From NCBI GenBank assembly GCA_963785985.1, contig CAWAXD010000017.1, positions 31,085-95,084 of the forward strand: 64,000 nt of DNA, given 5' to 3'. This document shows positions 3,717-3,923 of the stretch, piece after piece (the stretch's first letter is position 1; every line of letters begins with the position of its first letter). The DNA comes from an uncultured delta proteobacterium. GTDB taxonomy: Bacteria; Myxococcota_A; UBA9160; SMWR01. The notes beneath the pieces were generated by a model. The model was not told where the DNA came from and made no database searches. It worked only from the letters and a program-made list of their open reading frames with translations. The translations under genes were made by a program, and so were the position numbers.

Positions 3717-3923
3717 TCAGTCCGCGCCGCAGCCGCAGCCGCCGCCGTACGTGTCGGCCACCTGGGCGGAGGCCACCTTCGTATTGGCCGCGATTAGCAG
3801 CGCCACGGCCGGGGCCGTCGCCGCCGCCTTGCCGACGGTCTTGAGGAACTCGCGGCGCGCCATGGCCTCGGGATCTGAATCCTTCTCGGATGCGTTCGAG
3901 ATCGTACTGGAGATTTCTGCCAT
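3717..3923 (-). CDS. Putative RiPP precursor peptide (68 aa) with Tat-like RREFLK leader and C-terminal YGGGCGCGAD
   Basis: AGAAGGAG RBS 6 nt before the ATG at 3923. Short ORF directly upstream of the MNIO gene on the same strand, with a Cys-x-Cys tail. Confidence 0.8.
   Translation of the reverse strand: MAEISSTISNASEKDSDPEAMARREFLKTVGKAAATAPAVALLIAANTKVASAQVADTYGGGCGCGAD

Follow-up and report, generated by a model that had tools for sequence, protein, structure and literature searches.

A 64,000-nucleotide stretch of contig CAWAXD010000017.1 from an uncultured delta proteobacterium (the window) carries, at 3717..3923 on the minus strand, a small gene, P0001, of 68 codons plus stop, which very probably encodes the substrate precursor of a cassette of peptide-modifying enzymes. 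Our fuller reading, which we regard as evenly balanced between right and wrong, is that P0001 supplies the substrate precursor for a peptide-modification module of four genes and that its 53-residue leader doubles as a twin-arginine (Tat) export signal. [quoted passage not shown] What is new at the window, as judged from sequence, is a BufB-like MNIO with a CGC core, together with the methyltransferase fusion, in such a cassette; of the leader family itself, no description was found in the literature searched.

P0001, whose stop codon is at 3717-3719, translates as MAEISSTISNASEKDSDPEAMARREFLKTVGKAAATAPAVALLIAANTKVASAQVADTYGGGCGCGAD. An earlier note on this DNA had read here ARREFLK, a hydrophobic stretch, ASA, Gln and a 15-residue tail with CGC, and each of these is indeed present in its place. 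The leader (residues 1-53, 3765..3923, minus strand, as are all the P0001 features that follow) can be divided on alignments A1 and A2 into an acidic n-region, a twin-arginine motif, an h-region and a c-region. ARREFLK (residues 22-28, 3840..3860) agrees with the twin-arginine consensus, both in its own sequence and in the family counts given below. The h-region AAATAPAVALLIAA (residues 33-46, 3786..3827) is uncharged, has a 9-residue hydropathy peak of 2.4 and contains a TAPAV block that is near-invariant in the alignments, while the c-region has a basic residue, K49. The leader ends in A51-S52-A53 (3765..3773), a predicted signal-peptidase I site at which a cut would precede Q54 and leave a predicted 15-residue core, QVADTYGGGCGCGAD (Q54-D68, 3720..3764). 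Within this core, T58-Y59 (3747..3752) is a candidate acceptor for a kinase or nucleotidyltransferase, and C63-G64-C65 (3729..3737) contains the candidate MNIO targets. Invariant in A1 are R24, F26, K28, K32, A34, T36, A37, P38, A39, V40, L42, L43, A51, S52 and A53. That P0001 is a real gene is near certain: besides its translation and its homologues, a Shine-Dalgarno-like AAGGAG (3930..3935, minus strand) is read 6 nucleotides ahead of the ATG, and GC content at the three codon positions is 0.61/0.58/0.86, the third-position value (GC3) being the same, 0.86, in three neighbouring genes and the adjacent intergenic DNA standing at 0.68.

P0001 belongs to a family with the properties of RiPP precursors. 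At E<=0.001, a profile made from 20 leaders matches 1513 sequences, each representing a 50%-identity cluster, and at 1e-10 it matches 196; among the 150 matches listed, proteins of 49-205 amino acids share one conserved leader and have unrelated tails. The combination of conserved leader and hypervariable core (alignment A2, 150 listed representatives) is accompanied in P0001 by its location beside an RRE-containing modification enzyme. Clustering at 90% leaves five homologues of P0001, and homologues range from 81% down to 29% identity, come from several phyla and keep their place with respect to the enzymes. None of the 20 leaders has a match in a curated precursor family, and P0001 has no Pfam family. 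The leader family is a large group of probably enzyme-modified peptides, spread over several phyla and covered by no curated precursor model; genome mining that relies on classical leaders or on the customary core enzymes may therefore miss it.

The gene order around P0001 is compact. Downstream on the same strand, after a gap of 51 nucleotides, lies the MNIO gene (DUF692, PF05114 at 2.3e-68; 269 amino acids, 2856..3665, minus strand), the stop of which overlaps, as GTGA, the GTG start of a 458-residue fusion of a PqqD-type RRE, a helical insert and an HprK-like kinase (1483..2859, minus strand), recognised by Pfam, TIGR04352 and an AlphaFold2 model. Convergent with these runs the 3' part of a gene identified by Pfam as a fusion of NTP_transf_5 (PF14907) with an S-adenosylmethionine-dependent methyltransferase (1..1486, plus strand); the complete 684-residue reading frame begins upstream of the window (L009:11517-13571). 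All four genes, the methyltransferase fusion among them, are laid out alike in an orthologous cluster, L034. P0001 is translationally linked to the MNIO and RRE-kinase genes, and the remark of the earlier note that the cluster lacks a dedicated protease or transporter is borne out: a Pfam scan of seven flanking open reading frames (ORFs) in the window and eight upstream in L009, with ORFs beyond ~7.6 kb inspected by eye only, found no such domain, and among these 15 ORFs there is no lasso cyclase (PF00733-type), B2 protease, S26 peptidase or ABC exporter. Neither exporter nor protease was found in the L034 cluster.

Across the family, the leader gene keeps company with the same enzymes. Searches with the leader gave 12 true loci of 13 from genome contigs (L022 was dropped), and a scan with a 7-row leader alignment yielded nine loci from metagenomes; together with the two in the window's own genome, 18 of 23 loci have NTP_transf_5 and/or PqqD/HprK genes in the available DNA. 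Both loci of the window's genome carry both kinds of gene. Nine of the 12 genome-contig loci have the cassette, with NTP_transf_5 in nine and PqqD/HprK in four, and L016, L018 and L023 have neither; seven of the nine metagenome loci have it, and the remaining two lie on contigs of at most 1.3 kb. L015 has an RRE-kinase gene on the contig of its precursor, ~13 kb away, and L023 has one on a different contig. The second locus of the window's genome (L010:7381-10589, contig C10) encodes an 86-residue precursor in which ARRDFIK is followed by TAPAVALLL and the tail, Cys-free and rich in aromatic residues, finishes on basic ones. Directly downstream comes an RRE-kinase fusion, and an NTP_transf_5 gene runs convergently; the locus has no MNIO and no methyltransferase domain. 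An MNIO occurs in only four of the 23 loci, and the earlier note has to be corrected on this point: judged by gene order, the leader belongs to a PqqD/HprK-like kinase/NTP_transf_5 cassette to which the MNIO is an add-on.

The association was also approached from the enzyme side. In a sample of 401 genomes from the phylum of G402 (labelled Rhodospirillales), 68 match an RRE-kinase profile at 1e-20; most of these matched the kinase half only (ORFs of ~300-340 amino acids) and were set aside, leaving ten Pseudomonadota genomes in which the profile match starts before position ~140. A leader-profile ORF lies within ~1.1 kb of the kinase gene in six of the ten, though two of these, L079 and L080, are near-identical and so not independent. 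A seventh genome has a Tat-like small ORF, recognised by regular expression, and the remaining three have none.

Is the leader a working Tat signal? We consider this moderately probable on the sequence evidence. In P0001, RRxFLK at the n/h boundary is followed by an h-region of moderate hydrophobicity, a basic residue in the c-region and an AxA site, and the family as a whole carries every sequence hallmark of a Tat signal. Among 155 family sequences chosen by the leader profile, the RR pair is present in 154, exact RRxFLK in 67, the AxA site in 143, and Gln at +1 in 76. The sole curated models matched by any of 20 members tested are Tat-signal models (TIGR02811 touched by 16 of the 20 and, at E<=10, TIGR01409 by five and PF10518 by three), and the best curated match of P0001 is TIGR02811, a model of small Tat-signal proteins, at E 4.6e-05. 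The cross-matches of the leader profile point the same way. In 400 other genomes of the phylum of L011 (labelled Acidobacteriota), weak matches fall on the N-termini of proteins of 266-430 amino acids, two of them ferredoxin-type proteins with RRxF..TAGK..LTAPAAA signals; the only true member found there is in L011's own genome, the four other matches being ordinary Tat proteins. L022, an ordinary Tat protein of 387 amino acids, was likewise drawn in by the leader search. The necessary machinery is encoded in the window's genome, which has TatC, two TatA/B/E genes and one S26 peptidase, all unlinked to the cluster, the sole S26 gene being on another contig. Lasso peptide leaders and those of the linear polyphosphorylated peptides (LPPs) are reported to bind the same type of RRE via [Y/W]xxPx[LVIFA], without RRxFLK (PMC13381572, consulted in part). 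Since the known B1-type RRE motif does without RRxFLK, RRE binding leaves the RR box, the c-region and the AxA site unexplained. We therefore read the leader as a putative export signal whose hydrophobic core is fixed by a second constraint, namely RRE binding.

The putative binding partner is well defined at the level of fold. The RRE domain (residues ~1-87, 2599..2859, minus strand) is recognised by PF05402 at 1.1e-06 and is modelled as three strands and three helices. The AlphaFold2 model of the entire fusion, built on a 50-row alignment, has a mean pLDDT (predicted local confidence) of 94, and its RRE superimposes on that of the TbiB1-leader complexes 5v1u and 5v1v with a template-modelling (TM) score of 0.89-0.90 and a root-mean-square deviation (rmsd) of 1.1-1.2 A over 82-85 columns. 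By sequence, the RRE domain has no meaningful match to solved structures, TbiB1 having been found by fold search only. For the C-terminal domain, the fold matched is that of PEPCK and HprK/P; the fusion alignment shows no variation at P-loop residues G292, G294 and K295, and the best curated match of the kinase domain is TIGR04352 (HprK-related kinase A; 2.2e-29, 102.4 bits, below the cut-off of 200). Between the two domains, residues 99-146 (window 2425-2568, minus strand) form a confidently modelled helical insert; the linker has a weak match to the NHLP-clan leader model NF038399 (E 2.1e-05), and the C10 paralogue is 51 residues shorter.

At 90% identity, the RRE-kinase fusion is found in no fewer than 151 clusters. 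In L011 (L011:7263-8630) the RRE is joined to the MNIO, in L012 it is free-standing, and four proteins of 736-801 amino acids (P0029, P0030, P0032 and P0035) are MNIO-RRE-kinase triple fusions. Such changes of fusion partner are to be expected of an RRE that serves both enzymes. The cassette likewise appears to behave as a platform that takes different tailoring enzymes, an MNIO here and JmjC proteins in alphaproteobacterial loci. That the RRE docks within the leader seems to us reasonably probable, and we put the chance that one leader serves both export and RRE docking at a little under even, in both cases from sequence features. A complex prediction for RRE residues 1-98 (alignment A3) with the precursor (A2), run without controls, scored 0.00 against a mark of 0.32, and we rest nothing on it.

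The window MNIO is BufB-like. It covers profile positions 2-259 of 263 of PF05114 at 230.7 bits (gathering threshold 25), and its best curated matches are BufB (202.3 bits, below the equivalog cut-off of 310) and HvfB (164 bits, cut-off 360); the other MNIOs of the cassette reach 72-99 bits on the BufB model. It is 57% identical to the L034 MNIO, the two being 27-37% identical to the other six, and the MNIO domains of L011, L012 and the four triple fusions form a clade apart from it. A recent MNIO duplication within the genome was rejected, the only other MNIO being 33% identical. Cys is present in 40 of 155 tails, with CGC only in P0001, P0002, P0135, P0138 and P0227, and the L034 core, GRPCDSPA, has eight residues and one Cys. 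Conservation of the Cys residues, on which the earlier note had staked its proposal, thus breaks down at the family level and holds in the close sublineage with CGC tails and in L034. Since the tails of L011 and L012, both MNIO-bearing loci, are Cys-free, MNIO chemistry in this cassette is not always on Cys. That interpretation as a whole stands in part: the type of precursor, its linkage to enzymes and the Tat hallmarks are upheld, whereas an MNIO-centred family and family-wide Cys are not. For the window itself, it is reasonable to propose, from two loci, that the BufB-like MNIO acts on C63 and C65, and we think it fairly probable that these two residues are the MNIO targets.

A target for the kinase may lie just past the cleavage site. 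In 115 of the 155 sequences a Tyr is found 2-8 residues past AxA, and Tyr makes up 7.8% of the first ten tail residues against 1.5% of those beyond, an enrichment which lends some backing to the idea, raised in the earlier note, that Tyr could be phosphorylated. In the TPPA subfamily, Ser stands directly after A-I-A in place of Tyr, and by analogy this recalls the phospho-acceptor Ser3 of the LPPs.

Taken together, these observations suggest a pathway of six steps. In the cytoplasm, the kinase's N-terminal RRE, which is of the lasso-B1 type, would bind the leader, most likely at the TAPAV block; the HPr-kinase-like domain would then phosphorylate a hydroxyl near the leader-core junction (T58 or Y59), and the NTP_transf_5-methyltransferase protein would decorate the peptide further. 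The BufB-like MNIO would oxidise C63 and C65 to thiooxazole-type heterocycles, after which the finished peptide would exit via Tat, the pathway for substrates completed in the cytoplasm before export. A housekeeping signal peptidase would finally cut after A51-S52-A53 and free a 15-residue, Gln-first peptide, possibly a small metal binder. Under this proposal, which we advance tentatively, a true Tat signal has been co-opted as a RiPP leader, and the RRE acts as a proofreading chaperone on the hydrophobic core of the signal until the kinase, the nucleotidyltransferase and the plug-in enzymes are done. Tat and a housekeeping peptidase would replace the dedicated pair of exporter and protease, and the exported product may carry two thiooxazole-type groups that bind metal and, near Tyr59, a phospho- or phosphoglycosyl group. 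Such a holding role has a precedent in the Tat proofreading chaperones TorD, DmsD and NapD, cytoplasmic proteins that bind the Tat signal and hold the substrate until maturation is done; these have folds unrelated to the RRE and serve large cofactor proteins instead of peptides.

The closest characterised system is that of the LPPs (Popov et al., Nat Commun 2026, PMC13381572), encoded by LppA/K/B/S/D/N and described as restricted to Bacillota. Both systems have a linear precursor whose N-terminus is conserved and whose C-terminus varies, a lasso-type RRE, a kinase resembling HprK, an uncharacterised NTP transferase and no lasso cyclase. The leader is removed by signal-peptidase chemistry, here predicted, and the acceptor lies near the start of the core, Ser3 in LPPs and, as a candidate, T58-Y59 here. 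As reported in the available text of that paper, a signal peptidase I (SpI)-like enzyme removes the LPP leader with the help of the RRE, which presents the cleavage site to the peptidase, and LppK polyphosphorylates Ser3 of the core, Thr or Tyr in its place not being accepted. LPP leaders have the motif YxxPxVLxHQxIxFETxxS, whereas P0001 reads ...KAAATAPAVALL... and lacks an aromatic residue at the third position ahead of the Pro. The locus described here further differs in its Tat-like leader, in the fusion of RRE and kinase and in the additional MNIO and methyltransferase, and its hosts bear the labels Acidobacteriota, Alpha- and Gammaproteobacteria and others. The LPP report, in its available text, mentions neither twin-arginine nor Tat, Proteobacteria or Gram-negative. 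Because peptidase and exporter are lacking from the ORFs scanned and the LPP leader motif from P0001, we do not file the cluster as LPP; by analogy it appears to be a Gram-negative equivalent, with general Tat export and a signal peptidase standing in for the dedicated pair.

A number of observations weigh against our reading of the locus. P0001 scores 7.9 bits against TIGR01409, below its cut-off of 16.7, and has no match to PF10518. Three of 20 aligned members have the Arg pair displaced by one residue (KRRFLK), one has RS, and the alphaproteobacterial group reads RRELVKK or RRTVVT. The TAPAV block is near-invariant across phyla, far beyond the usual conservation of signal peptides, and this could mean that the h-region is only a docking motif. 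The family statistics are in part circular because the profile that selected the sequences contains the same features. A strict Tat-leader pattern (RRxF[LVI]K, then at least ten uncharged residues, then AxA), sought in all six frames of the whole 5.26 Mb genome, occurs in two places, both of them family members, while the reversed genome gives one chance occurrence; with a looser pattern the figures are 104 for the genome and 127 for its reverse. We therefore rejected the motif count as evidence on its own, and since the motif alone is not beyond chance in a GC-rich genome, the case for P0001 rests on conservation and gene context. Local comparative support is lacking, because none of 400 other genomes of the window's own phylum has the precursor family. 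The comparison with LPPs is also a source of doubt: these have their own archaeal-type SpI peptidase and an MsbA-like exporter, neither of which is among the 15 flanking ORFs scanned here, and the core of P0001 contains no Ser, whereas LppK rejects Thr and Tyr at Ser3. To this may be added the Cys-free tails of the MNIO-bearing loci L011 and L012, and the ABC and HlyD genes beside the cassette in L021.

Several of these points could be accommodated if the leader were an RRE docking sequence only, descended from or converged on a Tat signal, with an unlinked protease removing it and the product either remaining intracellular or leaving by an unlinked exporter. The conservation of TAPAV far above that of ordinary signal peptides, the reading of an xxxPx[LVIFA] motif by lasso-B1-type RREs, the transport genes adjoining L021 and the shortfall of P0001 against the curated Tat model would all fit. 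Such a solution would nonetheless not need RRxF(L/V)K, the basic c-region residue, AxA or Gln at +1, all of which are dispensable for the known B1-type RRE motifs and are kept across phyla, and no exporter or protease was found in the window cluster or in L034; we consider it unlikely. Quite unlikely, too, is an arrangement in which the Tat signal works and the RRE docks elsewhere, at the acidic n-region or at a junction motif Q-x-x-[DN]-x-Y, so that the two signals would be adjacent and not overlapping. The Tyr-bearing junction motif is conserved past AxA, and the LPP RRE is reported to present the cleavage site to the peptidase (PMC13381572, available text), as this arrangement would lead one to expect. 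The n-region is, however, variable in sequence, the junction motif differs by subfamily (e.g. AIA-[RG]-S-G in the TPPA group), and the Pro-containing block is the sole part of the leader that resembles known B1-RRE motifs.

Two further explanations would remove P0001 from the pathway altogether. Small Tat-signal proteins do exist, as the match to TIGR02811 illustrates, and three of the 12 genome loci lack a neighbouring enzyme, so that P0001 might be an ordinary small Tat-exported peptide that merely adjoins the enzymes and is not modified by them. Against this stand its tight packing with the MNIO and RRE-kinase genes, the co-occurrence in 18 of 23 loci and in six or seven of ten enzyme-first loci, and the fixed leader with hypervariable tail, which is the pattern of a precursor; we hold this explanation to be improbable. 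Still more radically, P0001 could be a chance ORF in GC-rich DNA and no gene at all, a suspicion fed by the single occurrence of the strict motif in the reversed genome. With a ribosome-binding site, a GC3 equal to that of its neighbours, and homologues that are 81% to 29% identical and keep the same place relative to the enzymes in several phyla, a chance origin is extremely improbable.

Returning to the proposal of a Tat signal that doubles as RiPP leader, three further systems invite comparison. Paeninodin (PadeK) and pseudomycoidin (PsmK and PsmN) are phosphorylated or phosphoglycosylated lasso peptides, PsmN being needed to put a hexose on phospho-Ser (PMC6993621, consulted in part). As described there, these systems share with ours an HprK-type kinase acting on the precursor, a B1-type RRE and a PF14907-type nucleotidyltransferase; they differ in having a lasso cyclase and a B2 protease, not found here, and kinases that target a C-terminal Ser, whereas the core of P0001 ends in Asp and has no Ser. 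A lasso peptide cluster was rejected on the ground that neither cyclase nor B2 protease is among the ORFs scanned. The bufferins (BufA/BufB/BufC) and HvfA/HvfB resemble the window locus in an MNIO that acts, here putatively, on precursor Cys, a general-secretion signal that takes the place of a classical leader and its dedicated exporter, and a proposed role in metal binding (PMC12452194; 10.1101/2024.03.18.585515; PMC11252979, all consulted in part). In the available text of PMC12452194, bufferins have a Sec signal, a DUF2063-RRE partner and much longer products, in contrast to the Tat-like signal, the PqqD-type RRE fused to a kinase and the 15-residue core found here. No match to DUF2063 was found in the cluster, nor is P0001 a Sec-signal DUF2282-type precursor; with no DUF2063 partner and an MNIO under the BufB cut-off, a bufferin cluster was also rejected. 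Methanobactin (MbnA/MbnBC) is a short two-Cys peptide in which an MNIO makes a paired heterocycle and thio groups that bind copper. P0001 is likewise short, with two Cys that an MNIO could convert for copper binding; solved MbnB chains are, however, distant relatives of the window MNIO (34 bits, E 1e-07), MbnC is missing, and the logic of leader and export is different.

As a rule, a RiPP cluster encodes a protease and an exporter of its own. A leader serving also as a Tat signal would, if true, be a second general-export solution after the bufferins, and Tat would be a natural fit for a modified peptide, since it transports substrates already finished in the cytoplasm. Bufferins are, according to the available text of PMC12452194, the only RiPPs shown to use a general export route, namely Sec; this survey of the MNIO landscape does not, in that text, mention Tat, kinase, HPr, PqqD or nucleotidyltransferase. 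No natural RiPP with a Tat leader was found in the literature searched, which included the available text of PMC12452194, PMC13381572, PMC12710340, PMC7470986 and PMC12668002, whose supplements may list such cases. If true, the proposal would also carry the chemistry of the LPPs, reported from Bacillota only, into Gram-negative phyla.

Among 401 genomes of the window's phylum, the precursor family is present only in the window's own. Such a patchy distribution suggests horizontal acquisition. L016 has two tandem precursor genes (L016:6792-7198), one with RS for RR, that lie between transposase genes, with no modification enzyme within 7 kb. In L034, a second, weak precursor-like match (L034:3378-3461, E 0.001) lies ~2.5 kb upstream of the precursor. 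Upstream of the window, L009:1689-7994 is a 2101-codon open frame with matches to enolase and to a phosphoenolpyruvate-utilising domain (pyruvate phosphate dikinase, PPDK); the enolase C-terminal domain precedes the N-terminal one, and the whole may be artefactual, produced where frames overlap in GC-rich DNA.

Five loci from metagenome-assembled genomes labelled Alphaproteobacteria (L014, L015, L017, L019 and L020) have tails of ~50 residues that share HILDDFTFGN...EDIDA. The precursor gene of this subfamily is followed by two JmjC genes (in L015 and L020, the two that were Pfam-scanned), a TPR protein and NTP_transf_5; L020 has, in addition, sulfotransferase and FkbM methyltransferase genes upstream. 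Divergent from the precursor gene in the window, at 4473-5945 on the plus strand, is a gene for a membrane glycosyltransferase of PMT_2/GT-C type, which is not conserved beside L034; sugar-related genes also flank L010, L011, L012 and L021.

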